Shown here: positions 2,764 to 47,165 of the stretch, in pieces
How positions within the stretch are numbered: position 1 is the stretch's first letter
Layout of the letters: each line of letters starts with the position of its first letter
Origin: Pseudomonadota bacterium
Lineage (GTDB): Bacteria > Myxococcota_A > UBA9042 > GCA-2863065
Length of the DNA stretch: 64,000 nt
Reading direction: 5' to 3'
Assembly: GCA_947498315.1 (NCBI GenBank)
Contig: CANMLD010000002.1
Coordinates: forward strand, 8,368-72,367
Program-made: the position numbers and the translations under genes
The notes under the pieces: generated by a model
The model's database searches: none
Told to the model about the DNA's origin: nothing
What the model saw: the letters and a program-made list of their open reading frames with translations, nothing else

Positions 2764-2880
2764 GGATAACGATCTCTAGCACCGGGGGGCGGTTGTCCAC
2801 CCCCGGGGCGCGTGCTACAACCACAGCGCTCGTCTGGAGCGTCACGCCGTCGTGCCGCTCTAACGCCACACCACAAAATC

Positions 2881-30816: not shown

Positions 30817-33800
30817 TCATGGGACCGTCGAATTGTTCACCGTGAGCGCAAAGGCCACCGACGCGACTTTGGCATCGTGTTCTAGACTCACGACGTAGCT
30901 CCCCGCTGCGTTGGTGAGGTATGAGCCAGCCGCTGGCGCATCGAGTAAAAGTACACGTTCGAGCTCGCCGTTACGTCGGATGGCCACTGTCCCGCTGCCG
31001 ACGGTCGCCGTGGCAGTCAAGCTCGCGGTCTCACCCGAACTGAGCGAGAACGCAAGGGAGTCGGTGTCGTCGTCGCAGACCGTCAGGAGCGCCGGCTCGA
31101 CCATGCCCCCGGCGTCTCTCGGCCAATCGGCCGGCGCCGCCAAGCTCGATGGTTCGAGGAGGTCGTTGGGACAGCTCGCGGTCGTCAACAGAGTGGTGCT
31201 GCTCGCACTCCAGCCATCAGACGAGCCCGCGTCAAGGTCACACAATGTCCAGCTCTGCCCTCCGTCGCCACTGAAGCGGACGATGACCGCGACATCGCCA
31301 GGTGCCGACGGGGCACTGAGCGTCCCCATCCACTCATCGTTATTCGGCTCGGGTGAGGCCGAGGTCAGGCCGTCATAGAGCGTGTTTGGCTCCATGGGGA
31401 ACCACGTGACCACCTCCTGCTCCCCTGATCCGACGGGAGCGAGCCCCATCTCCGCGCGGACGCGGTCCTCAGGGTCGAGGTCGGTCCCCAACGTTTGGGT
31501 CGTCAGCAGCGCGTTGTACCAGCGTGCGTAGATGGTTGCGGTCTCACCTGGATACGCCGACACCTGTATCGGGAACTGAGTGCGACAGAACGTGATCGCC
31601 AGCGCGCAGGCGTCGTTGGCGTCGTTGGGCGTGCCAATGCCCCCCGCCCACGTCGTGCGCTGGGCGCAGAAGGCCGCTGGGAGGTCGTTGGCGGTCGATG
31701 ACGGCAGAACAGCCGGGTCGAGGCCGATGGCGCCGGGTTCGTCGCCAGCGTCTACTGTCGCCTGATCGAGCAGCAGCCCGAAGGCCGAGAGCCGAAGAGT
31801 GCCCGAGAGCGGGACCGCTAGCCCAGGCGCGACGATGGTGGGGCCCGCCATGAGGGCTTCGGAAGCAGGGTCGGTGAAGACGATCGTCGAGCCCGGCGGG
31901 ACCAGCGTCGTGCCCGTTACTAGCGCCATCGGTCCACTCGGCCCTTCGAGCGTCACGCCGTCCAGGTTCAGTGTGGCGTCAGTGAAGTTGATTACTTCCA
32001 GGTAGTTACCTCGGCCTTCCGACGCGACTTCCGTGATGAGAAGCTCTCCACTTCCCGGCCGCCGCCAAGGGGTACACGCGCCGTCGTTGCAGAAGTCGGG
32101 GCAGTCGATCCGAGCCGTCTCGGGCCCGTCGCAGTTGGCCACTCCGGCATCACTCGTGCAGTCGTCGCTCGCGTACACGACCTGCTCATCACCCTGGCAA
32201 GCCGTGCGAGGCGACGCACACGGGCTCGGCGCGCAGGGGTCGTCTGCGGCAGAGAGGCTGAGCGAATAGACCGCGTTCGACGCGGCGAGTAGCCCCCTGA
32301 CCGAAACGACCCAAACGGGAGAGACGGCCGACTCTGGGATGCTCAGCCCTTGGGTCACCGTGGTGCTATCGACGATGAACCCGACGACACCAGCGCCCTT
32401 CCCGTCGATCACCTCCACGAGGACCGGGTCGCCCTTGAGACGGGTCACCGACAGCGTGACGAGATCACCTGGCGCGACGGCGACACGGCGAAAGTCGTCG
32501 TCGCCAGCGCACAGGACTCTCTCGCTCTCGAAAGGCATCGCTACGAGCGGGCCGGTCTCGGCCGTGTCGTCAGGCTCCGCGTCGTCGTCGAGGCACAAGT
32601 TGGTGCAGGTCGCGCTACCATCGCAGGTGCCGAAGGGCGCTCCGCACTCCGCGTCACTGGTGCACCCGCGGCACTCTAGCGCCGACGGGTCGCAAATCTT
32701 CCCGACGGCCCCGCAGTCCTCTATGAACGATGGCGCAAACGCGCACTGGACCGTCCCGGAGTCGATGATGCACGCACCAGAATCCGCAGGGTAGACTCGC
32801 AGCAACCCGGCTTCGCACGCGTCAGGCGGCGTAACGCACGGGTTTGGCTCACACGGATCGGGCAGCACTGTCACCTTCCCGGCATTGCCGGATGCATAGC
32901 CGTCCTCCGAACCGTCTCGGCCGCTGCCGACGTCGCGATCGCAGTAGGTCCATGTCGTCCCAGCGTCGCCCGAGAAGCGCGCGGCGACGTCATGTCCCCC
33001 CACGGGCGCCGTGAGCGTGATGGCGTACTCGTCTTCCGTGTCGTTCGAACCCGCCACGCCCTTTTGCGGCACCCACGTGCTCCAGGTTTCAGGCGAGCTG
33101 CCGACCGGGCCATACCCGGCCTCACTTCGAAGGAGGGGATGCAGGTTCAGTTGCGAAGACGTGTCCGTGAGCCCTGGCGCGTGAACCTCGCTCGTCACTT
33201 CGAAGGACGCTCCGACTGAGAGCGTGGCAGATGTCGGCGCCGTGACGCGACATCGCTCAATTCCATAGGGGCAGGGGTCGTTCTTCTTCCCGGGTGAGCC
33301 TGCCCCACCGGGACCGTAGCCGAGGGCTGAGGCGCACCATGACGTCACCAGGTCATTGTCCTCGGCCGTTGACAGGGCAGGGGACAGCATCAGCGACCTC
33401 GCCGGAAGGTGAGCGTAGGTTGCGTCCCACGACGCGACGTCGAGCGTCGTCGCGTCGACGCTGAGGGTGATGCTGCTCGCCACTGTCAGGAGCGCCCCCA
33501 CGTACACTCGGTCGACGGCGACGCCCCCATTGGCCTTCGGGTCCACGTTGCGCCCGAAGAGCAGAGCGCCCCCTGGTGCGACGTAGAGCGGGCTCGATTG
33601 CGTGAAGGTGGTCTTGGACTCGCCGCCCACGGTGGCAGGTGCTCCAGTCAGGGTCACCGTCACGCCTTGCAGGGTAAGCGACTCTGACCCGGCGTTTCGC
33701 ACCTCGAACCACTGGCCGTCCGCTGCAGGGACGCCGTCCGGCGCAATCATGACCTCTGAGACGACGAGCTCGCCGGTCTCCGGTTGGCGATAGGGCGAGC

Positions 33801-34857
33801 ATGCTCCCGCGAGACAGAAGCCGGGTGCGCAGTCGACGGGCAAGGCGGCCGCGTACGAACAATCGTGACCCTCTCCGGCGATCGAGCACAGCCCTGTCGC
33901 GGCGAATGTAACGATGCCCTCGCCTTCGCAGGCGGCTGCGGGCGGGGACGTGCACGGGTTCGGGACGCACGGGTCGTCCTCCAGCGTCGTCAAGGAGAGC
34001 GCGTAGTCCACGATCAGTCCGAAGGCCGAAGACGCCACCGCGATGACATACCCACCGGGCGGCAGGCCCTTGGCAGCGACCTCATAGCTCCCACCCTTGG
34101 CGGTCGCCGTCGAGACGACGGACCCGTCGGCTCGAAGTAACCCGACGTCTAGCTCGCCGCCGGCCGCCGGGGACACCGTGACGAAGAGATCACCCCCGAG
34201 AGGTAAAGGGACCGCGTAGTAGTCGGAGTCCGTATCGCAGACGTGAAGACCGTTGACTGTCGCTGGGACGGCAATGGTGGCGCCCGTTTCGACGGAGTCG
34301 TTCTCTTCGAAGGGGTCGAACGTACAGATCGGCAAGCAAGCGTAAGTGGCTAGGTCGCAGCGCTCGGAATCGTCGCAATCGGTGTCGGCGAGGCAGTCGA
34401 CGCAAAGAGCAAGCTCATCTGAACAACGCCTGCCCAGGGCGCCACAGTCGGTCGTGCTCGACAGGGCGTATTGACACTCGGGAGGGCCGGTGAGCTCCCC
34501 CCCGGCCTCGGGCTCGATGCAGGTGCCGGGCGTCGTATGCAGTTTCAGAGTATCGCCATCACAGAGCGGAGGCGGCGTGATGCACGGGTTCGCAAAGCAC
34601 AGGCTGTCGGGGTCCTCGATGTCGGGGTCGATGACCTCGTCCGTCGGACCCGAATCGGGGCCGTCTCCGTCTCCGGGTGGGCCGTCGCTGCCATCGCTGC
34701 CGTCGCTGCCGTCGACTCCGCCGAAGTCGAACTGTGGAAGGTCCGAAAGGTTGATTACCGACGTGTCGCCTGACGTTGCCACGGTCGCGTCGTCGGTACA
34801 TGCCTGCGCGACCAGGAGTAGCGCGTATAGCCAAGGTCGATTCGCACGTAGGGCCAT
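30817..34857 (-). CDS. Very large secreted modular protein: four copies of a Cys-rich module (NPC..PP..C...C...DC...C..GAC), each followed by a lamin-tail-domain (LTD)-like or pre-peptidase-C-terminal (PPC)-like beta-sandwich
   Basis: Signal peptide MALRANRPWLYALLLVAQAC. LTD-like segments GELVVSEVMIAPDG...GQWFEVRNAGSESLTLQGVTV and GELLITEVASEGRGNYLEVINFTDATLNLDGVTL. PPC-like segments with the D.D.DYY/...GDL.V signature (LHVCDTDSDYYAVPLPLGGDLFVTV; LCAGDDDFRRVAVAPGDLVTLSV; LTVCDDDTDSLAFSLSSGETASLTA). Confidence 0.55.
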   Translation of the reverse strand: MALRANRPWLYALLLVAQACTDDATVATSGDTSVINLSDLPQFDFGGVDGSDGSDGSDGPPGDGDGPDSGPTDEVIDPDIEDPDSLCFANPCITPPPLCDGDTLKLHTTPGTCIEPEAGGELTGPPECQYALSSTTDCGALGRRCSDELALCVDCLADTDCDDSERCDLATYACLPICTFDPFEENDSVETGATIAVPATVNGLHVCDTDSDYYAVPLPLGGDLFVTVSPAAGGELDVGLLRADGSVVSTATAKGGSYEVAAKGLPPGGYVIAVASSAFGLIVDYALSLTTLEDDPCVPNPCTSPPAAACEGEGIVTFAATGLCSIAGEGHDCSYAAALPVDCAPGFCLAGACSPYRQPETGELVVSEVMIAPDGVPAADGQWFEVRNAGSESLTLQGVTVTLTGAPATVGGESKTTFTQSSPLYVAPGGALLFGRNVDPKANGGVAVDRVYVGALLTVASSITLSVDATTLDVASWDATYAHLPARSLMLSPALSTAEDNDLVTSWCASALGYGPGGAGSPGKKNDPCPYGIERCRVTAPTSATLSVGASFEVTSEVHAPGLTDTSSQLNLHPLLRSEAGYGPVGSSPETWSTWVPQKGVAGSNDTEDEYAITLTAPVGGHDVAARFSGDAGTTWTYCDRDVGSGRDGSEDGYASGNAGKVTVLPDPCEPNPCVTPPDACEAGLLRVYPADSGACIIDSGTVQCAFAPSFIEDCGAVGKICDPSALECRGCTSDAECGAPFGTCDGSATCTNLCLDDDAEPDDTAETGPLVAMPFESERVLCAGDDDFRRVAVAPGDLVTLSVTRLKGDPVLVEVIDGKGAGVVGFIVDSTTVTQGLSIPESAVSPVWVVSVRGLLAASNAVYSLSLSAADDPCAPSPCASPRTACQGDEQVVYASDDCTSDAGVANCDGPETARIDCPDFCNDGACTPWRRPGSGELLITEVASEGRGNYLEVINFTDATLNLDGVTLEGPSGPMALVTGTTLVPPGSTIVFTDPASEALMAGPTIVAPGLAVPLSGTLRLSAFGLLLDQATVDAGDEPGAIGLDPAVLPSSTANDLPAAFCAQRTTWAGGIGTPNDANDACALAITFCRTQFPIQVSAYPGETATIYARWYNALLTTQTLGTDLDPEDRVRAEMGLAPVGSGEQEVVTWFPMEPNTLYDGLTSASPEPNNDEWMGTLSAPSAPGDVAVIVRFSGDGGQSWTLCDLDAGSSDGWSASSTTLLTTASCPNDLLEPSSLAAPADWPRDAGGMVEPALLTVCDDDTDSLAFSLSSGETASLTATATVGSGTVAIRRNGELERVLLLDAPAAGSYLTNAAGSYVVSLEHDAKVASVAFALTVNNSTVP

Positions 34858-35000
34858 GAACAGTCACCTCCGGGGGACCTTGTACCGGCTCGCCCAGCAG
34901 TATTCCAGCGTGTCGCTCGCAAGGGGGCCGTGGTAGCCTCGACGCCTCGGCGGGGAGAGCCCGCCCACGCCCGCTCCGGTGTCTTGCATCGGGTGGAAGG

Positions 35001-35474
35001 TTGGAGGAAAGCTCGTTGAAGATCATCTCCGTTCGTTTTGAAGACTTCGAGTCCGCCTTCATCGTCGGATCGCCCGACTCCCGCTACTTCGTCAGTACCG
35101 AGACCGGCGAGGTTACGCACACGAGCCACTTTGATGATGAGACTGTCCGGAGGCGCATTCTGGACAAGGTCTCCGCGCCGAGCTGGCTCGAGGTCCCCCG
35201 CCCGACGGAAGCCGACGCTCATGCGGAGATCGACGCGTTCATCGCCGCCGAAGGAAGAGATGGGGAGATCGGGCAGGCGCTCACGGCAGGCTTGAACGAG
35301 AAGAAGCCCTTCGTCGGGTTCAACAAGGCGCTCGGCAAGTTCCCTGACGCCCGGCGGCGCTGGTCTGACGCGCGGATGGCGGCCATTCACCGCCGCCTGC
35401 TCGCCTTCACGACCGAGCACGGGCTCCACATCGACGATCCCGCGTACGCCGCCATCGTGGCGACGAGCCGCTGA
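35001..35474 (+). CDS. Hypothetical cytoplasmic protein (157 aa), family not recognised
   Basis: ORF with coding-like composition, divergent from the large secreted protein gene. No recognisable motif. Confidence 0.4.
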   Translation: MEESSLKIISVRFEDFESAFIVGSPDSRYFVSTETGEVTHTSHFDDETVRRRILDKVSAPSWLEVPRPTEADAHAEIDAFIAAEGRDGEIGQALTAGLNEKKPFVGFNKALGKFPDARRRWSDARMAAIHRRLLAFTTEHGLHIDDPAYAAIVATSR

Positions 35475-35519
35475 GCAGACGCAGCCACCGCCACGCACCG
35501 GTGTGCTACGCTTCGTCCG

Positions 35520-38054
35520 ATGCCCTACGCTCAAGCCCGCCGCGTCAGCCTCATCGTTTGCAGCGTCCTTGCCAGCACGCGCTGCTCCGAGTTCGTCGAC
35601 CGCGTCCCCGATGCGGGCCCAGTTGCGACGGAGGAGTGCACGGCGACCTGCTTTACGGTGGGTCTGCTCGATTGCGCCGCTGAGGGCCAACGCCGCGTGT
35701 GCGTGGAGTCAGCATCTGGGTGTCTCGATTGGCAACCTGCGGCCGCTTGTCCGAACGGGACCACGTGCCGTGATGCAGGGAGCTGCGGAGCCGATGGTTG
35801 CGGCTCCGATGGGCTCCGAGTGTGTCGCGGCGACGCTGGATTCGAGACGTGCGAGCGCAAACCCGATGGCTTCCTAGGTTGGAGCGGGTTCCAGGCCTGT
35901 ACCGCCGGCACGTCATGTGTCGACGCCGGCGAGTGCGCCGCCACCGAACCCGAGTGTCCGAGTGTCGGGTTGAAGCGCTGCGAGGGTGGCCTCGTTCAGA
36001 CCTGCGCCGTCATTGACGCCGTCCTCGCGTTCGGGCCGGCAAGCGCGTGCCCCGACGGCGAGTCCTGCCGCGGCGACGGTGTCTGTGGCCTCGACCTGTG
36101 CGGTTTGGGCGAGTCGCGATGCGGCGAAGCGGGACTCGAGACCTGCGTTGCGGACGCGGTTGGGTTCCTCGACTACGACGGGGGGACGCCGTGCCCTGGT
36201 GAAGGCGGCGTGTGCCGCAATGACCGCTGCGGCATGGACTCCTGCTCGGCCCCGGGACAGCGCGTCTGCACCACAGAGGGGCTGCTCGACGAGTGTCAAC
36301 TGGCCGCCGAAGGCTTCTTGGCCTGGAGCGGCGGGGTCGGCTGCCCAGACGGCGGCGTTTGCAGAGACGGGCTTTGCGGAGCTGACCTCTGCCCCACGGT
36401 GGGCACGTCCGAGTGTATTGGTGCTGACATCCGCGTGTGTGACTTCAGCGGCCCTTTCCTGGAGTGGGGCGAGTCTGCATCCTGCCAAGGTGGCGTCTGC
36501 TTCGGAGGCGCTTGCATCACGAGCGAGTGCGCCGGGCTCGGAGCCTCGAAATGCGCGGATGATGCGTTCGTCTCTCTCTGCCAGAAGCAGACGACCGGCG
36601 CGTTCGCCTGGGGGCCGCCAATCCCGTGTCCCGGCGTAGGCACCGTCTGTCGGGCCGCCGGCGTCTGCGGCAAGGACTCGTGCGCTGCAGAAGGAGGTAT
36701 TGGTTGCCTCGGGGAGGCTGCGACTCGACGCTGCGGCTACTACGGCGCTCCCTTCCTGACATGGGGGCCAGGTGATGACTGCGCAATAGGGCTCGAATGT
36801 CGCGGCGGCGTCTGCAGCGCTGACGAGTGTGATGGCGGCGCCCCAGTCTGCACGCTCGACGGCCAAATCGAGCGATGTGAGCTCAGCAACGATGGCTTTT
36901 TCGCCATCGTCGGTCCCGAACCATGTCCCGCACCCGAGATGGTCTGCGTGACGGGTTCCGAAGGCGCCGCGTGCGAGTTCGAAGGCCCCTTCACCGTGGC
37001 CATGGACGTGGATCATTATGCGGTCGCCGCAGGGCAGGACGGTGGTGCCGTCGTGGTCTGGGGCACCGCGGGTACGTTGGAGCTCGTCTACCTCAGGGGT
37101 GACGGAATCCCAGAATCACCCGTCACGACCGTCGGTAACGGGGCAGGGGGCACTGGCGCAGGGGGCACTGGCGCAGGGGGCAACGGCGTACCTGGGACGC
37201 GCGCATCTGTCGCGGTCCCCGCCACGGGGCCTCTCGCAGGGCAAGCCGTCGTGGTCTGGTACGACGCGACCGATGAGGCGTTGCGAGTCCGGGTCGTCCC
37301 CAAGGCAGGCGTCGCTCCCGCCGCCTTCGCGTTACCTGTGAAATACGAACTCACGGCCGAGACGAGCCTCGCTTCAGTCGGGGATCCTTCCGGTGGTCTC
37401 GCGTTGCGGCACGAAGTGAACGGCGCGAACGGCGCGCGTCTCTTCGCAAGCCAAGTTGACGCCACCGGTGTTGCTTACAGCGTGGAGTTCGGCCAAACCG
37501 CCGGCGGGACCTTCCGTGGTCTCGCGGCGGCTCCCGACGGCCCATCGGGCTTTGTCTCGGTGTGGGCGAGCGGCGCGGAGACATCGTCGACACTCGCACT
37601 CAGGCGAGTCGACCTCACCGGCGGGACCATCGACCCTGTGAGACAGGCCGACTTCTCAGAGGCGCTTTCGGCGTTGTCGATCTGCTCTCACGGTGCGACG
37701 TGGCTCGTCGCGTCAGAGCGTGCCTTTGGGTCTGCAGTGCTCGGCGTGGGCCTCGCCGTCTTTGGCGCTGGCGTTCAGCCGATCTCGCCCGTCTGGCAGA
37801 CCGAGCTCGCCGGGCTCTTGTCGCCGCGACTCGTCTGCTTACCCGACGGCGCCTTGCTCCTCGGACTCATCCCGGACACAAAAGCCCTTGTTGGTCGGCG
37901 CGTTCTCTCCACCGGGACGTTGGCGGGCGGGACGGTGGCCTTTACGGGCGCCGGGGATGACTCCATGCCGGATGGTGCTCGACTTGCAGACGGCCGAGTC
38001 CTGGTGCTAGCGGTGCAGGATGGCCTCTTGCGTGCCCGTTTCTGGGAGCCCTAG
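35520..38054 (+). CDS. Secreted Cys-rich repeat protein (~10 tandem ~45-aa units, C..G.C....C..G...C.......GFL.W.....C) with a C-terminal ~330-aa non-Cys domain
   Basis: Repeats such as CPDGESCRGDGVCGLDLCGLGESRCGEAGLETCVADAVGFLDYDGGTPCPGEGGVCRNDRCGMDSC. A Gly/Ala run (GNGAGGTGAGGTGAGGNG) separates the C-terminal domain. Confidence 0.5.
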   Translation: MPYAQARRVSLIVCSVLASTRCSEFVDRVPDAGPVATEECTATCFTVGLLDCAAEGQRRVCVESASGCLDWQPAAACPNGTTCRDAGSCGADGCGSDGLRVCRGDAGFETCERKPDGFLGWSGFQACTAGTSCVDAGECAATEPECPSVGLKRCEGGLVQTCAVIDAVLAFGPASACPDGESCRGDGVCGLDLCGLGESRCGEAGLETCVADAVGFLDYDGGTPCPGEGGVCRNDRCGMDSCSAPGQRVCTTEGLLDECQLAAEGFLAWSGGVGCPDGGVCRDGLCGADLCPTVGTSECIGADIRVCDFSGPFLEWGESASCQGGVCFGGACITSECAGLGASKCADDAFVSLCQKQTTGAFAWGPPIPCPGVGTVCRAAGVCGKDSCAAEGGIGCLGEAATRRCGYYGAPFLTWGPGDDCAIGLECRGGVCSADECDGGAPVCTLDGQIERCELSNDGFFAIVGPEPCPAPEMVCVTGSEGAACEFEGPFTVAMDVDHYAVAAGQDGGAVVVWGTAGTLELVYLRGDGIPESPVTTVGNGAGGTGAGGTGAGGNGVPGTRASVAVPATGPLAGQAVVVWYDATDEALRVRVVPKAGVAPAAFALPVKYELTAETSLASVGDPSGGLALRHEVNGANGARLFASQVDATGVAYSVEFGQTAGGTFRGLAAAPDGPSGFVSVWASGAETSSTLALRRVDLTGGTIDPVRQADFSEALSALSICSHGATWLVASERAFGSAVLGVGLAVFGAGVQPISPVWQTELAGLLSPRLVCLPDGALLLGLIPDTKALVGRRVLSTGTLAGGTVAFTGAGDDSMPDGARLADGRVLVLAVQDGLLRARFWEP

Positions 38055-38161
38055 TGCCTGAGAGGACTCGCTGCGGTGTGCCATCGAATTGGACACTGGA
38101 CGGATTCGGAGTTAGCTCAGCGACCAACCATCGCCCACATTGAGGGCCCCGAGGAGCTGCC

Positions 38162-38782
38162 GTGAAGGTCACTGGACTTGCCATCTCATTGGCGCCCCTG
38201 CTGTTAGCGTCGACCGCGGCGAACGCCGGCCCCTACGACGGCTTTCGTCTCGGCTTCCTGGGGAGCTTCGGCTTTGGCGGTGAGACCGAGACCAAATTCG
38301 ACGCAAGCGTCAAGTCCGACTCCGATAACGAAGCTACGGCTGGCTTCGTCATCACCGGCCAATACCCTGTTTGGACTTACGTCACAGTCGGGCTGGAGTT
38401 CGGTGTGCTCTTCTCCAAGACCGAACGGATGGACCACGCCAACCTTGACCGGAACAGCATCATCGACATCTCACCCGTCATCGAGGGCAAGTACCCGCTC
38501 CTCGGTGGCCGGCTCGAGCCCTTCATCAAGATGCCTTTCGGCCTCTCTATCTTCGTGCCGAGCGACGATCTCAAGGAGAACAGCACCGGGATCGGCTGGA
38601 ATGTGGGCCTCATGGCAGGCGCGCGCTACGTCGTCTGGAGAGGGCTGGCCGTTGAGGCCGAGCTGGGGTGGCAAGGGCACGGGGGCTCCTACGATGAAGA
38701 GCGCGAGGGCTACAAGAAGCGCGAGGCCGACTTCGAAAGCCATCAGCTCCAACTCCGCTTCGGCATGCTCTGGAGCTTCTGA
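38162..38782 (+). CDS. Small outer-membrane beta-barrel protein (OmpW/OmpA-barrel-like)
   Basis: Signal peptide ending ANAGP. Alternating amphipathic beta-strands. C-terminal aromatic residue (..LRFGMLWSF), the typical OMP sorting signature. Confidence 0.6.
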   Translation: MKVTGLAISLAPLLLASTAANAGPYDGFRLGFLGSFGFGGETETKFDASVKSDSDNEATAGFVITGQYPVWTYVTVGLEFGVLFSKTERMDHANLDRNSIIDISPVIEGKYPLLGGRLEPFIKMPFGLSIFVPSDDLKENSTGIGWNVGLMAGARYVVWRGLAVEAELGWQGHGGSYDEEREGYKKREADFESHQLQLRFGMLWSF

Positions 38783-38806
38783 ACACGGTCTGTTACGGTC
38801 GAGGCC

Positions 38807-40018
38807 GTGAGTTACGAAGAGAAGCGCCTCTTCCATCGCTATCCGTCAGGGCTCCGCGCAGCCTTTAGAATCGGTGGCACCGGCTTTCGCGGCATGATTG
38901 TGAACGTTGGCGCCGCCGGCGGCTTCGTCGCGACTAAAGCGCCCCCCACCGTCGGAACGCGGGTACAGATGGCGGCACAAGTCGACCGGACCCAACCGTC
39001 GGTTTGGCTCGATCTCCGTGTGACGTGGGTCAGCACGAACATGTCGGGTGGCCGGTCGGACGGACATGGCGCTGTGCCCACTTCCGGGTTCGGCGGATTC
39101 TGGTTGCATGCGTCCTCCCGGCACGGCGAAGAGCCTCTCTCGTCCTTCCTACGCGACGTCCTCGGCATTGGGCAGACGGTGATTCGCCCCATGACCCCAC
39201 CTGAGGGTGGTGCCGTCGTCCATGTCTATCGCTTCCCCGACATCTACGACGGCGCGGAGCTGTCCGACATCCCGTGGTGGGCAGGGCGTGAACGGACTCC
39301 ACGCCGACCCGTCTCGCTCGCATCGGCTCAAGTCTCACCACGCCAAGACACGACCACTCGGGCGTCGGCGGCAAGCACCCGAGCGGCGGACGCGCGCGCC
39401 GCAGGGAAAGGCAGCACTGCGTCGACACGGGCTCGTGGGGTCCACTCAGGTGGAGACCGCGGGCTAGACTTACCGACCGCCGACGAGATCGAAGGCATCG
39501 CTCCGATCGGCAGCGCTGTGGGTAGCAACACCGGCGTGTTCTTTGCCGACGTGGCCGACGAAGCCGAGCCCCCGCGTATCGAGGCCGCGCCATCCGGAAA
39601 GACCGGGGCTTGGAACGCCATCGTCGGCCGCTTCAGCGGACTTCGGTCGCGCGAGAGCTCGCCAGAGACGCCCACATCGGGCGCGCGGGTCCGTGTCGCT
39701 AGCCTACCCACCGTGGAATACATGATTGGCAAGAAGGCGAGCCCGGCGACGCTCTCCCGCATCGGGACTGGCTGGGTCGTCCTCACGGCGCCGGTCGGCG
39801 CGAGGCCACCCGAGGTCTGGTCGCGCCTCGTCGTCACTCTCAAGCCACCCGCTGGCCACAAGGGCGAGAACGTCGAGGTGAACGCAACCGTGACCCGCAT
39901 CAAGGAGGTCCCTGAGGGGGTCGTCATCCATTGCAAGGTAAACAGTATCAACGAATACAATAAGCAGGGCACCTACGCATTGTACGTGGACGCGTTCAAC
40001 AACGCCCAACCGGGTTGA
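38807..40018 (+). CDS. PilZ-domain protein (likely c-di-GMP receptor) with a second degenerate PilZ-like C-terminal domain
   Basis: N-terminal RLFHR (RxxxR) followed ~20 aa later by NVGAAGGF ((D/N)xSxxG-like). The central ~170 aa are Ala/Arg/Ser-rich and disordered. 24 bp downstream of the OMP gene. Confidence 0.5.
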   Translation: MSYEEKRLFHRYPSGLRAAFRIGGTGFRGMIVNVGAAGGFVATKAPPTVGTRVQMAAQVDRTQPSVWLDLRVTWVSTNMSGGRSDGHGAVPTSGFGGFWLHASSRHGEEPLSSFLRDVLGIGQTVIRPMTPPEGGAVVHVYRFPDIYDGAELSDIPWWAGRERTPRRPVSLASAQVSPRQDTTTRASAASTRAADARAAGKGSTASTRARGVHSGGDRGLDLPTADEIEGIAPIGSAVGSNTGVFFADVADEAEPPRIEAAPSGKTGAWNAIVGRFSGLRSRESSPETPTSGARVRVASLPTVEYMIGKKASPATLSRIGTGWVVLTAPVGARPPEVWSRLVVTLKPPAGHKGENVEVNATVTRIKEVPEGVVIHCKVNSINEYNKQGTYALYVDAFNNAQPG

Positions 40019-40199
40019 ACGCAATCAACGGAGGTGATTGTCGCCCAGGGAGCCGAGCGCTCCAGCCGACAACGAGCCGAGTTGAACGTGGGCCCGAGAG
40101 CACACCGCGTTAGCCTGAGCGACGACCCAGCGCGATGGGAGGCCTGGTTCGACCCCCGCGCACTGGCGTTCGATGCCGGGCTTCTGTTAACCTCCCCAC

Positions 40200-43100
40200 A
40201 TGATCCGAAACCACCGGCCCCGTCATACCGTCTTGACCTCTCGATTCGTGCTCACCGATTGGGTGGCCCGAACTTCAGCGCTCTGGCACGTCGGGATCGC
40301 CATTCTCGTGGTGGGTTGCGGCGAGATCATCGTCCCAACCGACCCGGACACATCGACGAGCGCTGATGAGCCAGTCTTTACGAACCCTGGGCCTCAAGAA
40401 GCCATCGAGGGTGTCTCTTTGGCACTTCAGCTCAGCGCGACAGACCCGGGTGGTGGCAGCCTCGGCTATTCTCTGGAGTCGGGGCCCGACACGGCGGCCA
40501 TGTCGCCTCAAGGTCGCTTCACGTGGACCCCGGGCGCCGACGTCTCGACCCCTGCGGCCGATCAGACCGTCACCGTTACCGTTGCTGCCACCAACGCGGC
40601 TGGCTTGAAGGGGACCTTGGATCTCGACGTCACCGTACTCAACAACTCAGATGACGACGACTTGCCCGACTATCTCGATGAGGACGACGACAACGATGAC
40701 CTCACCGACGTTCAGGAGGGCGTCAAGAAGACCGACCCTACGCTGCCGGACACTGACGGAGACTCCATTGGTGACGCGACTGACCTGTGCCCGACGACCT
40801 CCGACAAGGAGCAGAAGGATACCGACGGAGATGACCTCGGTGACGCCTGTGATCCCGACGATGACGCTGACGGCACTCCAGATGCCGACGACAACTGCCC
40901 ACTCGTCGTCAACCCCCCGGTTGCGACCCCAGGGGGAGGGCAAGCACAGCCCGACTTCGACGAAGACGGCCTCGGTGATGCCTGCGATGCTGATGCTGAC
41001 GGTGACGACGTCGAAGACGACTCGGACAACTGTCCCGGCGTAGCCAACACCGCGGGCCCTGGAGGGCAGCCGGACCTGAATGGCGACGGCGAGGGTGACG
41101 CGTGTGATCTAGACGACGACGGTGATCTCATCCCAGACGGCGCTGACAACTGTCCAGAGGTCATCAACTCGAACCAGGGCGACAACGACGACGACGAACT
41201 CGGTGACGTCTGCGACACCGACGACGACAACGACGGCGTCGTCGACGACAACGACAACTGCCCGATCGACTTTCAGGCCAGTCAGAAGGACACCGATGGC
41301 GATGGGGAAGGCGATGAGTGCGACGTCTGCGTTACCAGCACGACGAACCTCGACGCCGACTCGGATGGGGTCTGCGACGACGACGACAACTGCCTCGGGC
41401 TGAACAGCGCGGACCAAACCGACAACGACGACGACGGCCAGGGCGATCCGTGCGACACGGATGATGACGCAGACGGCGTTCCGGACATGAACGACAACTG
41501 TAACCTAGTGATGAACGCGCTGCAGCAGGACTGTAACAACGACAAGGTCGGCGACGCGTGCACGCCGGACGATGACGGCGACGGCGTCTCCGATGTCAAT
41601 GACAACTGCGTCTGCGCTCAGAACGCTGACCAGAGCAACTGCGACAATGACGACGTCGGCGACGCGTGTGACGACGACATCGACGGAGACAACGCGACGG
41701 AAGCGCTCGACAATTGCCCCGGCTGCGCAGTCAACCCGGAACAGGCCGACACGAACTCCGACGACCAAGGCGACGCGTGCGATCCAGATGACGACGGGGA
41801 CCTCGTCCTCGACGCTGACGACAACTGCCCGTTGCGGGACAACCCCAACCAGACGAACTCCGACGCAGACCCGAATGGTGACGCCTGTGATCTCGACGAC
41901 GACGACGATGGGCTCGCCGACGAAGACGACAACTGCCCGACCATCGTCAATCTCGACCAAGCCGACTTTGACGACGACGGAGCAGGCGACGCCTGTGATC
42001 CCGACGACGACGGCGACGACCGAAACGACGATGTGGACAACTGCCCCCGAGTTGCCAATCCCATCCAGACGAACATCGACCAAGACTTAGTCGGTGACGT
42101 GTGTGATCCCGTTCTGAGGCTACCGCCCGAGGTGGCGTCGTCGAGCGAGTCGGTCAGGGCGGACTCCCGTGGGGGCGTCACTGCCATCGCGTTCGGCGGC
42201 CCTGTGCCCTGTGGGGCTTCTCCGGCATGCGGCTCCGCCGGCTACGTCGTCGTCGACCAGGCCGACTATGCCGCCATCGTCCCGGCGTGGATTACGAACA
42301 TGATCGGCCTTGGTGCTGCACACGTCTCCGGTGACCGGGCCGCCTACTTTTCGGGCATTGGCGCGCTCGGCAACGCTTCGCTGACGCGCGTGTTCGAGGG
42401 CAACTCCACCACGCCGTCCATCATCGCGACGGCGCAGTCGCCAAACGTCGTCGACCTTGCCGACGGAAGCGTTCTCGTCTTCACGGACGAAGGCGCGAAC
42501 TCCAAGGTCACGCAGGTCTTCTCTAGCAAAAAGCCGGCCGAGATCCACAAGACGGCGCTCGCCTTCCGAACGTCGCTGAACGACGCCCCATTCGCTCTCG
42601 ACAGTGGGCTCGTATTCGTGCCCTACGAGGTGTCGGCGGCAGGGTCGAAGTTCTCCGTCATGGTCTTCGGGCCAGAAGGGGCAAAGACCGAACCGCTACT
42701 ACCCGCCAGCGGCGTGCCGAACGCGACGAGCCTTGGCTTCGAGTTCATCGACAGGCTTATCGGGACGCCGTGGTGGTGTGTGCGTCGTAGCGGCCAGACC
42801 GAGCTCGTGCACACCACGGCAGCCGCCACGCCGAAGTTCAGCCAAAGCGTGCCCGCGCCCGATTGTGGCGCGCTCTGGTCAGGACAGGCGGACACCGGCG
42901 ATGTCTGGTACGACGCCACCAAGAGCGCTGCCGTGCACGAGGTCGGCCGTATCGACCCTTCGGGCGCCGTCGCGGTCGCGCGGCGCAGCTTCACGTGTGA
43001 CCCAACCGTCTACCTCGTCGGGAAGAGCGCCGCCGTGGTCGCCGACTGTGGCAGCGAGTCGTATGAGCTCGTGGACGCTCAGGCGGGCGTCACCGTGGAT

Positions 43101-44057
43101 GCGTGGGCGTCAGAGGCCATCAATGGCTACGGCCTCACCGTCGCTCGGAACGCGCAGAGCGGTCGGCTCGCGGCCGCCTTCCGCACCAACAAGTCCCTCG
43201 CGAGCCCGGTCGAGGCACGACTCGTCGGTGATGGCATCGAGAGCCTCATCCTCACCCACGTCACCGCCCTCGACAAGCCGACGATACAAGGGCTTTGGGT
43301 CACTCGCGAGGGCTATGTCTTCGCCCAGATCCTAGGGCGTTTCGATCCCGTAAACCCAAGTCAAAACTCAACCGTCCTCGTCTCGGCCGGCCCGACCCTC
43401 GGGACGCGGATCGCGACCACGAAGGGCTACGCCGAGCTCTTCGAGACCGAGAAGACGACGTTGCTGGCCCATAACGGCGCCGAGGGGCCCGGCCTCTATC
43501 TCGTCCTCGGCAATACGCCCGAGCTGGTGCAGTCCGCCTTCGTGGACGGCTCGACGGCCCGTCCTATGGCCCTTGGCGACACGGGCTCAGGCCATGTCCT
43601 CGTCTTCCTCCAGACGTCGCAAGGTGGCGCATGGTCCCTCTTCGACATCGACCCTGTCGCAAAGACGTCTACGGCGGTCCTCGAAGCGGTCTTGGCGCCA
43701 CCACTCTCCGTCGATCGCACTGGCGACGGGAAGGCCTTCGTGTTCGAGCGCGGTGGGAAGCTCGGCTATGCGGTGGTTCATGCCGACGGGTCACTGACCG
43801 TCACGCCGAACTTCAGCGAGGTCACCACGCTACTGGACCACAATGGGCTCGCGTGGGGCTATCGAGGACGTACCAACTTCGCCGATGACTGGACCGTCTG
43901 CCGCCTGGGCTCGCCAAACGATTGCCTCGCGCTCCCCACCGCCGCGTTCCTCGTTTACGAAGCCGTGGATGACGGCGGGCTGTACCATGCCCTCTGGTTC
44001 GACGAATCGGCCTCCCCCTCCGTCCCGACACTCTTCCGCAGTCTCGAGTTGCCCTGA
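40200..44057 (+). CDS. Lipoprotein with ~20 thrombospondin type 3 (TSP3) calcium-binding repeats followed by a ~650-aa C-terminal domain of unknown function
   Basis: Many DxDxDGxxDxxDNCPxxxNxxQxDxDxDGxGDACD units across ~40650-42100. Lipobox-like LVVGCGE near the N-terminus. Confidence 0.65.
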   Translation: MIRNHRPRHTVLTSRFVLTDWVARTSALWHVGIAILVVGCGEIIVPTDPDTSTSADEPVFTNPGPQEAIEGVSLALQLSATDPGGGSLGYSLESGPDTAAMSPQGRFTWTPGADVSTPAADQTVTVTVAATNAAGLKGTLDLDVTVLNNSDDDDLPDYLDEDDDNDDLTDVQEGVKKTDPTLPDTDGDSIGDATDLCPTTSDKEQKDTDGDDLGDACDPDDDADGTPDADDNCPLVVNPPVATPGGGQAQPDFDEDGLGDACDADADGDDVEDDSDNCPGVANTAGPGGQPDLNGDGEGDACDLDDDGDLIPDGADNCPEVINSNQGDNDDDELGDVCDTDDDNDGVVDDNDNCPIDFQASQKDTDGDGEGDECDVCVTSTTNLDADSDGVCDDDDNCLGLNSADQTDNDDDGQGDPCDTDDDADGVPDMNDNCNLVMNALQQDCNNDKVGDACTPDDDGDGVSDVNDNCVCAQNADQSNCDNDDVGDACDDDIDGDNATEALDNCPGCAVNPEQADTNSDDQGDACDPDDDGDLVLDADDNCPLRDNPNQTNSDADPNGDACDLDDDDDGLADEDDNCPTIVNLDQADFDDDGAGDACDPDDDGDDRNDDVDNCPRVANPIQTNIDQDLVGDVCDPVLRLPPEVASSSESVRADSRGGVTAIAFGGPVPCGASPACGSAGYVVVDQADYAAIVPAWITNMIGLGAAHVSGDRAAYFSGIGALGNASLTRVFEGNSTTPSIIATAQSPNVVDLADGSVLVFTDEGANSKVTQVFSSKKPAEIHKTALAFRTSLNDAPFALDSGLVFVPYEVSAAGSKFSVMVFGPEGAKTEPLLPASGVPNATSLGFEFIDRLIGTPWWCVRRSGQTELVHTTAAATPKFSQSVPAPDCGALWSGQADTGDVWYDATKSAAVHEVGRIDPSGAVAVARRSFTCDPTVYLVGKSAAVVADCGSESYELVDAQAGVTVDAWASEAINGYGLTVARNAQSGRLAAAFRTNKSLASPVEARLVGDGIESLILTHVTALDKPTIQGLWVTREGYVFAQILGRFDPVNPSQNSTVLVSAGPTLGTRIATTKGYAELFETEKTTLLAHNGAEGPGLYLVLGNTPELVQSAFVDGSTARPMALGDTGSGHVLVFLQTSQGGAWSLFDIDPVAKTSTAVLEAVLAPPLSVDRTGDGKAFVFERGGKLGYAVVHADGSLTVTPNFSEVTTLLDHNGLAWGYRGRTNFADDWTVCRLGSPNDCLALPTAAFLVYEAVDDGGLYHALWFDESASPSVPTLFRSLELP

Positions 44058-45112
44058 TGATGACCCGTCGTCCGTCCCGCCCCGCGCTATGGTCTCCGAC
44101 TGTCAGCATGACGCTGACGCCTCTGAGTCTCCTGGCACTGCTGACCATCCTCACCGCTTGCGCCACCACGAGCGAGACCCGTCCATGGAACGCCGTTGTG
44201 CCCTCGGTCCCTTTCAGGGGCGGTCTCCCGGCGGCCAAGGAGCGGCTCGACCGGGGTGACGTGGAGGGGGCGATGCGCGTGACCGAGGAGCACCTCAGCC
44301 TCTCGCCCGACGACCCATCGGCCCACTACACTCGCGGGACGCTGCTGCTTGGAAAGGGCAGGTGGGTTGACGCTCGTGACGCGTTGGCCCGAGCTGTCGC
44401 CATCGAGCCCGACAACGCCGGCGCGTGGAACAACCTCGGGATCGCCCAAACTGAGCTCCATGAACGAAAGGCGGCGGAAGCCAGCTTTCGGAAGGCCGCC
44501 GGTCTTCGTGCTGAGGATCCCACGCCGTGGGTCAACCTGGGCAACGTCCATGCCCGCAGCGGTCGCTACGCCGACGCTCGCGAAGCCTACGATGAAGCGC
44601 TCTTTCGAGATCCACAGGATCAGACGCTAGCGATTGCCCACGCTGGCGTCCTGATTCGCTCCGGTGGCCATGAACAAGCGGTTGAGACGCTGGAGTCCGC
44701 GATGCAGACCTTCGGCGAGACCCCTGAAGGCCTATCGACCCTCGCGGCCGCGCTTCGTGGGCTAGGCCGTGGCCAGGAAGCGCTCGTGCAGTCCGAGAAG
44801 GCTCTGGCGCTAGCGCCGGATTCGCCAGCCGTCCTTCTGTGCGTGGCGATGTCCCTCGACTTCGCTGAGCGTCCGGAGGCCGCGTTGGCTTATGAGCGTG
44901 CCGTCACGGCAGCAGCCGGGACCGGCGTCGAGATGGGGGCCGTATACAACCGGGCTCTCTATGCGATGGAGAAGGGAGACAAGCCCCTCGCCACAGAACT
45001 CTTGACCCGGTACCTCGAGTTGGAACCCGGAGACACCCCTGAGCATCACAATGTGGTCGTGCTCCTTGATAGGCTGGCCAAGGAGACACCAAAGCCAGCG
45101 CCGCCGCCCTAG
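44057..45112 (+). CDS. TPR-repeat lipoprotein
   Basis: Signal peptide with lipobox LTILTAC. TPR units (AHYTRGTLLLGKGRWVDARDALARAVAIEPDNAGAWNNLGIA...). Start overlaps the TSP3 gene stop (tgATG). Confidence 0.6.
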   Translation: MMTRRPSRPALWSPTVSMTLTPLSLLALLTILTACATTSETRPWNAVVPSVPFRGGLPAAKERLDRGDVEGAMRVTEEHLSLSPDDPSAHYTRGTLLLGKGRWVDARDALARAVAIEPDNAGAWNNLGIAQTELHERKAAEASFRKAAGLRAEDPTPWVNLGNVHARSGRYADAREAYDEALFRDPQDQTLAIAHAGVLIRSGGHEQAVETLESAMQTFGETPEGLSTLAAALRGLGRGQEALVQSEKALALAPDSPAVLLCVAMSLDFAERPEAALAYERAVTAAAGTGVEMGAVYNRALYAMEKGDKPLATELLTRYLELEPGDTPEHHNVVVLLDRLAKETPKPAPPP

Positions 45113-45225
45113 AAGTCGGTAATGGAAGTGTGGCTGATTCTAGGCGCCGCCATACGGCGTCAACTTGCAACCGAAGGATGGCCCACACGAACTCGATGCC
45201 GGGCCTACGCACAGAAGGACCCACC

Positions 45226-46470
45226 ATGAGTAACCTGGAGCACGCTGACCCCGAGATCGCTTCCCTCATTGCCCGAGAGGACCACCGGCAGGCTCGGCAG
45301 ATACGGCTCATTCCGAGTGAAAACTACACGAGTGCGGCCGTAATGGAGGCCACCGGGTCGTCCCTCACGAACAAGTACTCCGAGGGCTACCCGAACAAGC
45401 GCTACTACGAGGGTCAGGAGTTCATCGACCAGATCGAGCTCATCGCCATCGGCAGGGCCAAGTCGCTCTTCGGCGCCGAACATGTGAACGTTCAGCCCTA
45501 CAGCGGCTCGCCGGCGAACCTTGCGGCCTTCGTCGCCCTCTGCCAACCGGGCGACACGATCATGGGTCTCTCGCTTCCGCACGGTGGTCACCTCACACAC
45601 GGATGGTCGGTCTCGGCGACGGGTCAGTTCTACAAGTCGGAGCGATACGAGGTCCATCCTGAGACTCACCGCCTCGACTACGACGCGATTCGCGCCAAAG
45701 CGCTCGCGGTAAGGCCGCGAGTGCTCATCGCAGGCGCCACCGCGTACTCGCGTCAGATTGACTTCGCGATCTTCGCCGAGATCGCCAAGGAGTGCGGCGC
45801 ATACCTGCTCTGCGACATCGCTCACATCTCCGGCCTAGTCGCCGGCGGTGCCCATCCGTCACCCATTCCACACGCCGACGTCGTGTCAACGACCACCCAC
45901 AAGACGCTGCGTGGTCCGCGAGGCGGCATGCTCCTCTGCAAGGAGCTTCACGCGAAAGCCGTCGACAGAGCGGTGTTCCCCGGCTTGCAGGGCGGCCCTC
46001 ACGAGAACGTCATCGCGGGACTGGCCGTGGCGCTCAAGGAGGCTGCAACACCGGCCTTCACTGCTTACGCGCACGCGATCGTCGCCAACGCCAAAGCGCT
46101 TGCAGAGCGTCTGCTCGAGCACGGCTTCTCCCTGGTCACTGGCGGAACGGACAACCACCTGATCCTGTTTGACGCGACGTCGAAGGGGGCGACCGGAAAG
46201 GAGATGGCTCGGGCCATGGCGATAGCCGGTCTCGAAGCGAACGCCAACACCATCCCCTTCGACCCTCGCAAGCCGTTTGACCCGAGTGGCGTCCGCATCG
46301 GGACCCCCGCCGTGACCTCACGCGGCATGGGGCCCGCCGAGATGATCCAGATCGCCGACTGGATCGCCCGAGTCTCCGAAGCGCGACAGAGCCCCGACTC
46401 GCTCGCTCGCATCACGACGGAGATCGACACGCTCTGCCAGCAATTCCCGGCACCTGGCATACCCGTCTAG
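45226..46470 (+). CDS. glyA: Serine hydroxymethyltransferase
   Basis: N-terminus LIPSENYTSAAVMEA, the PLP-lysine region (TTTHKTLRGPRGG) and the length from Met at 45226 (414 aa) match GlyA. The part of the annotated ORF upstream of 45226 is non-coding. Confidence 0.9.
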   Translation: MSNLEHADPEIASLIAREDHRQARQIRLIPSENYTSAAVMEATGSSLTNKYSEGYPNKRYYEGQEFIDQIELIAIGRAKSLFGAEHVNVQPYSGSPANLAAFVALCQPGDTIMGLSLPHGGHLTHGWSVSATGQFYKSERYEVHPETHRLDYDAIRAKALAVRPRVLIAGATAYSRQIDFAIFAEIAKECGAYLLCDIAHISGLVAGGAHPSPIPHADVVSTTTHKTLRGPRGGMLLCKELHAKAVDRAVFPGLQGGPHENVIAGLAVALKEAATPAFTAYAHAIVANAKALAERLLEHGFSLVTGGTDNHLILFDATSKGATGKEMARAMAIAGLEANANTIPFDPRKPFDPSGVRIGTPAVTSRGMGPAEMIQIADWIARVSEARQSPDSLARITTEIDTLCQQFPAPGIPV

Positions 46471-46589
46471 TACGAGCCTCATCGAGAAAGAGCAGGGAGC
46501 GGAGCGAATCGACTTCAGACGATTCCGCGACCGACCCACTCGAACTTCAGCTTCAACTTCTACAATCCAAGACCCTCTGCATTTTTCCC

Positions 46590-46617
46590 GTTGACAGGAG
46601 GGTCATCATCTCTACAC
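46590..46617 (+). promoter_or_regulatory. Candidate sigma70-type promoter for the str operon (TTGACA-16 nt-TACACT) with a ~170-nt leader before rpsL
   Basis: ttgacaggagggtcatcatctctacact read directly. Position fits an rpsL promoter. Confidence 0.35.
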
Positions 46618-46790
46618 TCCGCCCGTCCTCTCGTGGGGGACGTGCCTTTAGGGAACCGCATCCGCCCGGCCTTCGCCGGACCCCGGGTGAAGGCCTTGGA
46701 GCCGGCGCCTTGACGCCAACACACGACAACGAAGACGCCAATCATGCTTGAGTGCATGCCAGGCGAGGGTTTTGGGGTTACGGCCAACTT

Positions 46791-47165
46791 ATGCCGACGA
46801 TCAACCAGCTGATTCGACAGGGCCGCGAAAGGCGTCGCGAGAAGAGCGATGCTCCGGCACTGATGAGCTGTCCGCAGCGACGTGGGGTTTGCACCCGCGT
46901 ATACACGACGACCCCGAAGAAGCCGAACTCGGCCCTTCGTAAGATCGCACGTGTGCGCCTCACCAACGGAATGGAGGTAACCTCCTACATCCCTGGTGAA
47001 GGGCACAGCCTCCAGGAGCACTCGATTGTGCTCATCCGCGGTGGGCGTGTGAAGGACCTCCCGGGCGTCCGCTATCACATCATTCGCGGCACGCTCGACG
47101 CCACCGGCGTCAATGGTCGCAAGAACGGCCGGTCCAAGTACGGTACCAAGCGGGGCAAGAAATAA
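46791..47165 (+). CDS. rpsL: 30S ribosomal protein S12
   Basis: The sequence [12 protein letters not shown], the motif [10 protein letters not shown] and the length of 124 aa all match S12. Confidence 0.95.

Follow-up and report, generated by a model that had tools for sequence, protein, structure and literature searches.

A run of closely spaced, co-directional genes raises the question of whether its members work together. Such a run lies at positions 38162 to 45112 of a 64,000-nucleotide (nt) stretch of DNA, here called the window (assembly GCA_947498315.1, contig CANMLD010000002.1, positions 8,368 to 72,367 of the forward strand; GC content, ~65%). A 78-kb contig of an ENA metagenome (ERZ27280213 k141_2501231) is an exact match to the window. 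The run comprises genes for a small outer membrane protein (OMP), a PilZ protein, a lipoprotein with thrombospondin type 3 (TSP3) repeats, and a lipoprotein with TPR repeats. An earlier reading of the letters alone, here called the original prediction, suggested that these four genes could be a single surface module, responsive to cyclic di-GMP (c-di-GMP) and dependent on Ca2+. We compared the locus with close and distant relatives, which are annotated as Myxococcales or Myxococcota metagenome-assembled genomes (MAGs). On balance, we favor a different answer, namely, that the region holds two unrelated things side by side: a conserved TSP3-TPR pair followed by glyA, and a clade-specific trio upstream of it. 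As far as the sequences indicate, the trio, which consists of an 844-amino-acid (aa) Cys-rich protein, the small outer membrane barrel, and the cytoplasmic PilZ protein, has no conserved link to the TSP3-TPR pair. The features concerned are as follows.

35520..38054, plus strand: Cys-rich repeat lipoprotein-like protein, 844 aa, upstream of the OMP gene
38162..38782, plus strand: small outer membrane beta-barrel protein, 206 aa (Pfam OMP_b-brl, signal peptide, C-terminal Phe)
38807..40018, plus strand: predicted cytoplasmic PilZ-family protein, 403 aa (Pfam PilZ)
40144..40191, plus strand: conserved 48-nt block in the PilZ-TSP3 spacer, directly before the TSP3 start codon
40200..44057, plus strand: TSP3-repeat lipoprotein, 1285 aa (Pfam TSP_3, lipobox)
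40200..42110, plus strand: N-terminal half of the TSP3 lipoprotein, with lipobox, immunoglobulin (Ig)-like domain, and TSP3 units
42111..44057, plus strand: C-terminal domain of the TSP3 lipoprotein, 648 aa (all-beta, modeled beta-propeller or propellers)
44057..45112, plus strand: TPR lipoprotein, 351 aa (Pfam TPR families, lipobox)
45226..46470, plus strand: glyA, serine hydroxymethyltransferase (Pfam SHMT, 511 bits)

The four open reading frames (ORFs), their shared direction, and the gaps between them are as originally described: 24 bp separate OMP from PilZ, 181 bp separate PilZ from TSP3, and TSP3 and TPR overlap at TGATG (junction sequence CCCTGATGATGACC), where a single A ends the TGA stop codon and begins the next ATG. 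The domain calls for all four genes were likewise recovered in Pfam, all of them above the curated cutoffs. The plus-strand run around the four genes comprises at least 20 genes (in order, the 844-aa protein, OMP, PilZ, TSP3, TPR, glyA, rpsL, rpsG, fusA, rpsJ, and onward) and continues through glyA (called from 45226 rather than from a GTG codon at 45130) into the ribosomal operon rpsL-rpsG-fusA-S10. Therefore, co-directionality alone says little about a four-gene module.

The TSP3-TPR-glyA order is kept in distant lineages

In the window, L014, and L008, the gene order is 844-aa protein, OMP, PilZ, TSP3, TPR, and glyA, with 75 to 85% identity between these relatives. The TSP3 protein of L014 is 75% identical over its full length and 77% identical over the C-terminal domain; in L008, just 99 aa from the N terminus of the TSP3 protein are present (64% identity). 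More distant loci differ upstream. L009, which equals L015 (43% identity over the full TSP3 protein), has a minus-strand ppk gene and then TSP3, TPR, glyA, and a Ser/Thr kinase gene. At L010 (32%) and at L011 and L012 (32%), a minus-strand gene (365 aa and 332 aa, respectively) is followed by a gene for a membrane protein (814 aa and 796 aa) and then by the same TSP3, TPR, glyA, and kinase genes. L020 (33%) starts in the same manner, with a minus-strand gene (367 aa), a 797-aa membrane protein, and TSP3, and its contig ends inside the TSP3 gene. In L019 (27%, C-terminal domain), the C-terminal part of TSP3 is followed by TPR, glyA, and the kinase. The TSP3-TPR-glyA order is thus kept in four distant lineages, and the upstream side varies. 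No OMP or PilZ gene was found upstream of the TSP3 ortholog in L009/L015, L010, L011/L012, or L020. The arrangement OMP-PilZ-TSP3-TPR is confined to the window, L014, and L008, which speaks against a single four-gene module. Conservation of the linkage in relatives had been named as a check that could refute that module, and OMP and PilZ are unlinked from TSP3 in all distant lineages.

In contrast to the upstream side, which has been rearranged at least three times, the TSP3-TPR junction is intact. The two genes adjoin on the same strand in 5/5 lineages for which downstream DNA is available (the clade of the window counted), with TPR orthologs of 31 to 85% identity directly downstream of TSP3 in L014, L009/L015, L010, L011/L012, and L019. 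A kept junction together with repeated upstream rearrangement is evidence for a two-gene unit. The trio would have come to adjoin the TSP3 gene at a rearrangement-prone boundary. glyA follows the TPR gene in L009, L010, L011, L014, and L019, with a 4-nt overlap in L009; its adjacency may reflect co-transcription or inherited order. In the window, the kinase gene is replaced by the rpsL-rpsG-fusA operon, and therefore the downstream boundary has also been rearranged in this clade. The kinase genes that follow glyA in the distant lineages lie at L009 9429-11336, L010 16114-18153, L011 16117-18105, and L019 4072-6069.

The membrane protein upstream of TSP3 in three of the distant loci (L010 7500-9944, L011 7562-9952, and L020 1321-3714) is an ~800-aa protein with multiple transmembrane segments. 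It is absent from the window, is 55 to 58% identical between lineages, and has a faint match to BK_channel_a; it may be an ion-channel-like partner. We considered the 844-aa protein of the window as a counterpart of the ~800-aa protein of L010 and L011 and rejected this pairing (BLASTP E=0.31). The former is of a Cys-rich repeat type and the latter spans the membrane many times, and the two are unrelated.

The TSP3 and TPR genes are predicted to be coupled

Stop and start codons overlap at the TSP3/TPR junction in the window (TGATG), L009 (ATGA), and L010 (GTGA); the junction is 3 to 4 nt in L014, a possible overlap, and 72 nt in L011. From these junctions, we predict that the two genes are translationally coupled. 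Both products carry lipoboxes that are kept in all five lineages. That of the TPR protein is LTAC followed by ATT, and the Cys with the subsequent A-T-T is invariant in 5/5 orthologs. Divergence is also alike, with TPR orthologs at 31 to 39% identity and the TSP3 protein at 32 to 43%. The TPR protein is thus a putative partner of the TSP3 lipoprotein.

Many Pfam TPR families match the TPR protein, which falls below the NCBIfam cutoffs for Tgl (53.9 versus 225), GltE (42.5 versus 225), PilW (65.7 versus 154), and PrsT (83.6 versus 312). The L010 ortholog matches TPR_Slam (39.8 versus a cutoff of 35.2) among 32 overlapping TPR families. We considered Slam-like export, in which a TPR protein and a barrel export a surface lipoprotein, and rejected it: the barrel is not DUF560 and is unlinked in relatives. 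The TPR_Slam match was set aside as support, since it is one of many overlapping TPR matches.

Architecture of the TSP3 lipoprotein

The TSP3 protein has the lipobox LVVGC with Cys40 at nt 40317-40319, which is kept in all full-length homologs and is followed in them by a conserved (G/P/A/S)(E/K)I(I/V) motif. An Ig-like domain occupies aa 58-146 (nt 40371-40637; He_PIG, 21.5 bits, below the cutoff of 24). The TSP3 region (aa 149-637, nt 40644-42110) is 32% Asp and contains 30 Cys residues, and Pfam TSP_3 (PF02412) scores 204.9 bits over 10 stretches. The original count of ~20 TSP3 copies agrees with the number of Ca2+ loops, ~22 non-overlapping matches to DxDxDxxxD (31 when overlapping matches of the regular expression are included), but not with the number of full DNC-containing units, which is 11. 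TSP3 repeats (PF02412) bind Ca2+, as in thrombospondin and COMP, and the lipoprotein presumably does so too. The lipobox points to the envelope or the cell surface, with both a periplasm-facing and a surface-facing orientation possible. The four full-length relatives (1239 to 1273 aa) share the whole architecture.

The C-terminal domain is modeled as one or more beta-propellers

The original prediction could not assign a C-terminal domain of ~650 aa. This domain (residues 638-1285, 648 aa) indeed had no sequence match in Pfam, NCBIfam, or PDB. It contains 8 Cys residues, which fits an extracytoplasmic location. An exhaustive HMMER search among 1.84 billion cluster representatives returned 9 matches (8 besides an identical fragment), and word-indexed searches with the domain, as a single sequence or as an 8-sequence profile, returned the identical fragment only. 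Structure prediction had been proposed for this domain. AlphaFold2 (AF2) on the single sequence gave a predicted local distance difference test (pLDDT) score of 37. With an 8-row alignment, AF2 gave an all-beta model with 51 strands, a pLDDT of 76.3, and a predicted TM-score (pTM) of 0.72, and Foldseek placed it in the beta-propeller class. The top Foldseek matches include the double-propeller proteins LRP6 P3E3P4E4, Aip1, and BT4673, with E values of ~1e-9 and TM-scores of only 0.17 to 0.29; most structural matches are scaffold propellers (WD40, LRP6, and integrin alpha). Neither Foldseek nor the sequence searches identified a specific homolog. We concluded from the model that the fold class is beta-propeller, probably as a tandem pair, and any blade count would likewise be read from the model. 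We concluded that the domain defines a rare, unclassified propeller family and that a TSP3 lipoprotein carrying it is a rare architecture among the TSP3-repeat envelope and surface proteins of Myxococcota.

Comparison with known systems

The closest characterized analogues of the TSP3 lipoprotein are CglD and MtsC of Myxococcus xanthus. Proteins of this kind underlie adhesion, gliding, and cell-cell cohesion in cultured myxobacteria. CglD, a lipoprotein of the cell surface, has a COMP-like DxDxDG region and acts in gliding in a Ca2+-dependent manner, and it shows that a TSP3/COMP-like lipoprotein can be surface exposed and give Ca2+-dependent adhesion (bioRxiv 10.1101/2023.10.19.562135). Both CglD and the window protein are large (1130 aa and 1285 aa, respectively), Cys-rich lipoproteins from Myxococcota, and in both an N-terminal COMP/TSP3-like Ca2+ region (a dozen DxDxDG repeats in CglD) precedes a C-terminal binding module. 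However, CglD has VWA/MIDAS and EGF-like repeats, whereas the window protein has none by Pfam and instead has an Ig-like domain and one or more propellers. No glt or cgl genes lie near the window TSP3 gene. No sequence similarity between the two proteins was seen beyond the TSP3 repeats, and no search aimed at it was made. By analogy with CglD, the TSP3 lipoprotein may have an adhesive role.

MtsC (MXAN_1334; NF047638), also from Myxococcota, is a TSP3-repeat MYXO-CTERM cell-cell cohesion protein with a named role in cohesion and social motility. The window protein passes the MtsC model NF047638, with 454.9 bits against a cutoff of 350, although this total is reached by adding up 4 repeat stretches, the best of which aligns to no more than profile positions 89-266 of 428. 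The model spans ~428 aa, whereas the window protein is three times longer and has a propeller domain. MtsC is anchored by a C-terminal MYXO-CTERM tag; the window protein has an N-terminal lipobox instead and ends in PTLFRSLELP, with no Cys/hydrophobic tag, and no match to the MYXO-CTERM model is listed for it. The match is partial and confined to repeats, and the tag is lacking; therefore, the window protein is not an MtsC equivalog. We concluded that the TSP3 lipoprotein would work like CglD and MtsC but belongs to neither family. Automatic annotation would probably misname it MtsC, and an NCBIfam equivalog model that can be passed by repeat content alone lets a wrong name spread.

The original prediction had drawn an analogy with TSP3 repeats fused to OmpA-like anchors, the barrel here being supplied by a separate gene. 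OmpA-family TSP3 proteins do share Ca2+-binding TSP3 repeats in an envelope protein. However, the anchor meant in that analogy appears to be PF00691, the peptidoglycan-binding C-terminal domain of OmpA. This domain is not a barrel, which is a flaw in the analogy, and it has no match in any of the four window proteins; the TSP3 lipoprotein is therefore not an OmpA-TSP3 fusion. Unlike in an OmpA fusion, the 206-aa barrel of the window is of the OMP_b-brl family and is unlinked to the TSP3 gene in other lineages.

The TPR protein resembles the Tgl pilotin, GltE, and the TPR domain of Neisseria Slam in its size, in being a lipoprotein, and in being encoded beside an envelope protein that it might assist. 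Those systems differ in that no secretin, Glt genes, or DUF560 barrel lies near the window TPR gene, and the resemblance is at the generic level of TPR repeats. Similarly, the PilZ protein shares with PilZ receptors of the YcgR, Alg44, and PlzA type an above-cutoff domain and RxxxR. It differs from them in having N-V-G-A-A-G, middle and C-terminal domains of its own, and no conserved partner among the other three genes.

The PilZ family lies in other contexts in distant genomes

The PilZ protein consists of an N-terminal PilZ domain (PF07238; 33.8 bits versus a cutoff of 22.5; residues 5-78, nt 38819-39040) followed by a conserved middle region and by a C-terminal domain that is likewise conserved, with a variable linker between these last two. 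It has no signal peptide, no membrane segment, and no sequence relative in PDB. RxxxR is intact (RLFHR, R7-R11, nt 38825-38839), and R7 and R11 are nearly invariant across 13 homologs (alignment A3). As the original prediction had pointed out, the second motif, (D/N)xSxxG, is degenerate, reading N33-V-G-A-A-G38 (nt 38903-38920) with Gly in place of Ser. NVSxGG is canonical in most orthologs, and Gly replaces Ser in the close clade (the window, L014, and P0003) and likewise in P0006 (53% identity). These features suggest a distinct family, predicted to be cytoplasmic, with its own conserved middle and C-terminal domains, and a protein that probably is, or was, a c-di-GMP receptor.

PilZ orthologs at 38 to 56% identity, aligned over their full length, sit in four other genomic contexts. 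In L002/L003 (53%), the gene follows a metalloprotease-like gene, with M74 and Metallophos genes 6 kb away. On the P0004 contig (56%) and in L004/L005 (38%) and L006/L007 (38%), it is divergent from Peptidase_M74 and Metallophos. A metagenome scan with the PilZ alignment added one further context, L018 (49%), where it is divergent from uppS-cdsA. At the six sampled PilZ ortholog loci, no OMP, TSP3-propeller, or TPR gene adjoins the PilZ ortholog. In MAG GCA_005776725.1, PilZ is on SXOO01000199 and TSP3 is on SXOO01000069, and on an equivalent 156-kb contig there is no TSP3 gene within 10 kb of PilZ. Sample ERZ24794647 has PilZ and TSP3 orthologs on separate contigs with coverages of 14.5x and 15.1x, and this similarity suggests that they come from one genome. 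We concluded that the output partner of PilZ is not among the OMP, TSP3, and TPR genes.

The pair of genes for Peptidase_M74 (a MepA-like murein endopeptidase) and Metallophos recurs beside PilZ orthologs, and neither gene is in the window. The PilZ/M74/Metallophos loci are at L004 8547-9743, L006 8353-9588, the P0004 contig, and L002 1768-4074, which hints at a cell-wall-related context for the PilZ family. A different TSP3 protein, of 800 aa with TSP_3 and Cu-binding_MopE repeats, is encoded ~3 kb downstream of the PilZ ortholog in L004 (14002-16404) and L006 (14102-16501); a minus-strand gene and argG separate it from the PilZ ortholog.

The barrel gene and the 844-aa gene are restricted to the close clade

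The OMP protein matches OMP_b-brl (PF13505) with 32.2 bits against a cutoff of 28.7. It has a signal peptide (ending in STAANA before GPYDG) and an aromatic C terminus (LWSF) and is a plausible small outer membrane barrel. Homologs were found in L008 and L014 only (77 to 79% identity); none were found in the other sampled loci, in a metagenome scan with the OMP alignment, or in PDB. The 24-bp gap suggests that OMP and PilZ may be co-transcribed. The 844-aa protein has a lipoprotein-like N terminus, Cys-rich repeats (~14 C-x-C-type units), and a beta-rich C-terminal half, and it has no Pfam or NCBIfam match. Its homologs in L014 (69% identity) and L008 (80%) travel with OMP-PilZ, in the close clade only.

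The PilZ-TSP3 spacer contains a conserved block

Within the 181-bp spacer, 38/48 columns of the block at 40144-40191 are invariant among the window, L014, and L008, and the remaining spacer is rich in insertions and deletions. A weak terminator-like hairpin (40163-40179) lies within the block, such hairpins occurring at the background rate. Consensus scans of the intergenic spacers found no promoter. There was no Rfam match to a riboswitch or structured leader at E≤1 over positions 35000-47000, and the fold z-score of the spacer was -0.67. A sigma-54 reading of the block was rejected by eye: the spacing is GG-N8-GC and not N10, and L014 has not kept the elements. The block may serve the TSP3 gene itself, as a promoter or other regulatory region, or may weakly terminate transcription of the genes before it; its conservation in an otherwise variable spacer would fit separate control of the TSP3 gene.

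Proposed function and alternative explanations

We propose that the TSP3 and TPR proteins would be exported and lipid anchored in the envelope, where the acidic TSP3 region would bind many Ca2+ ions and form a disulfide-stapled, Ca2+-stiffened stalk. This stalk would present the Ig-like domain at one end and the propeller or propellers at the other as the binding module of an adhesin or receptor; propellers in extracellular architectures are usually ligand-binding platforms. The TPR lipoprotein would be an assembly, sorting, or docking partner. The original idea of a surface assembly with a TPR organizer survives in part, since the data agree with an envelope lipoprotein that binds Ca2+ and has a TPR partner of its own, but the barrel and PilZ are not in the unit. 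If this reading holds, it adds to the few bacterial thrombospondin/COMP-like Ca2+ surface proteins a rare architecture in which a lipobox, an Ig-like domain, 11 TSP3 units, and one or more beta-propellers are combined, and to which a TPR lipoprotein is dedicated. Several observations weigh against a two-gene unit beside an unrelated trio. The 24-bp OMP-PilZ gap suggests co-transcription, the order is kept in three sampled relatives, and OMP-PilZ may have a recent functional link with TSP3 in this clade. The TSP3/MopE protein near PilZ in L004 and L006 is a weak recurrence of PilZ-TSP3 proximity, which counts as one observation because the two loci are syntenic. In addition, the TSP3-TPR-glyA order could in part be inherited gene order, glyA being a housekeeping gene. 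Carried to its full extent, inherited order in a slowly rearranging stretch would explain TSP3, TPR, and glyA as mere neighbors, with no functional module and a TSP3 protein that acts alone. TPR proteins are generic, and the glyA-Ser/Thr kinase order is also kept, so order can persist without an obvious functional link. We nevertheless regard this explanation as unlikely: the TSP3-TPR junction, often a stop/start overlap, has stayed intact beside a repeatedly rearranged flank, and its two products are lipoproteins for the same compartment that diverge at similar rates.

Alternatively, the four genes could be a clade-restricted operon produced by recent juxtaposition, in which the barrel would serve as anchor or exporter of the TSP3 lipoprotein and PilZ would tie its assembly to c-di-GMP. 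Besides the short OMP-PilZ gap, the shared direction of all the genes, and the order kept in L014 and L008, this explanation can draw on the other TSP3 protein ~3 kb from the PilZ ortholog in L004/L006 and on a PilZ family in which RxxxR is conserved and NxSxxG is mostly canonical. It is very unlikely in our view. Relatives that are 75 to 85% identical give a kept order little weight, and the linkage is absent in every more distant lineage and within one MAG. The PilZ protein lacks both a signal peptide and a membrane segment by which it could reach an envelope complex, its second c-di-GMP motif has lost Ser in the window, L014, P0003, and P0006, and the conserved spacer block suggests separate control of TSP3. 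To our knowledge, a 206-aa barrel is too small for any known lipoprotein or protein translocon. On present evidence, a c-di-GMP-controlled four-gene surface machine is not worth experimental follow-up, and the locus warns that tight co-directional spacing beside a domain-rich gene is not evidence for a module without support from synteny. A further explanation concerns the propeller itself, which could be catalytic (a lactonase, a phytase-like enzyme, a glycoside hydrolase, or a lyase), making the protein a Ca2+-dependent envelope enzyme and not an adhesin. Although many bacterial propellers are enzymes, we think this distinctly unlikely, given that sequence searches of Pfam and PDB linked the domain to no enzyme family, that alignment A1 has no invariant columns marking a catalytic site, and that the structural matches are mostly to scaffold propellers; the combination of Ig-like domain, TSP3 repeats, and propeller also seems typical of binding proteins. 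The most far-reaching version of our favored reading is a long shot, less probable than any of these alternatives: TSP3-propeller and TPR as an undescribed Ca2+-dependent adhesion system of uncultured marine Myxococcota, an integrin-alpha-like counterpart to CglD, possibly placed under c-di-GMP in the clade of the window through a captured OMP-PilZ cassette.

Other genes in the window

Two further genes of the window lie outside the run discussed above. A giant ORF of 3610 aa at 2812-13644 has TPR repeats mostly in its C-terminal third. A 1346-aa Lamin Tail Domain (LTD) protein, which L014 has as well, is encoded on the minus strand at 30817-34857, divergently from the 844-aa gene.

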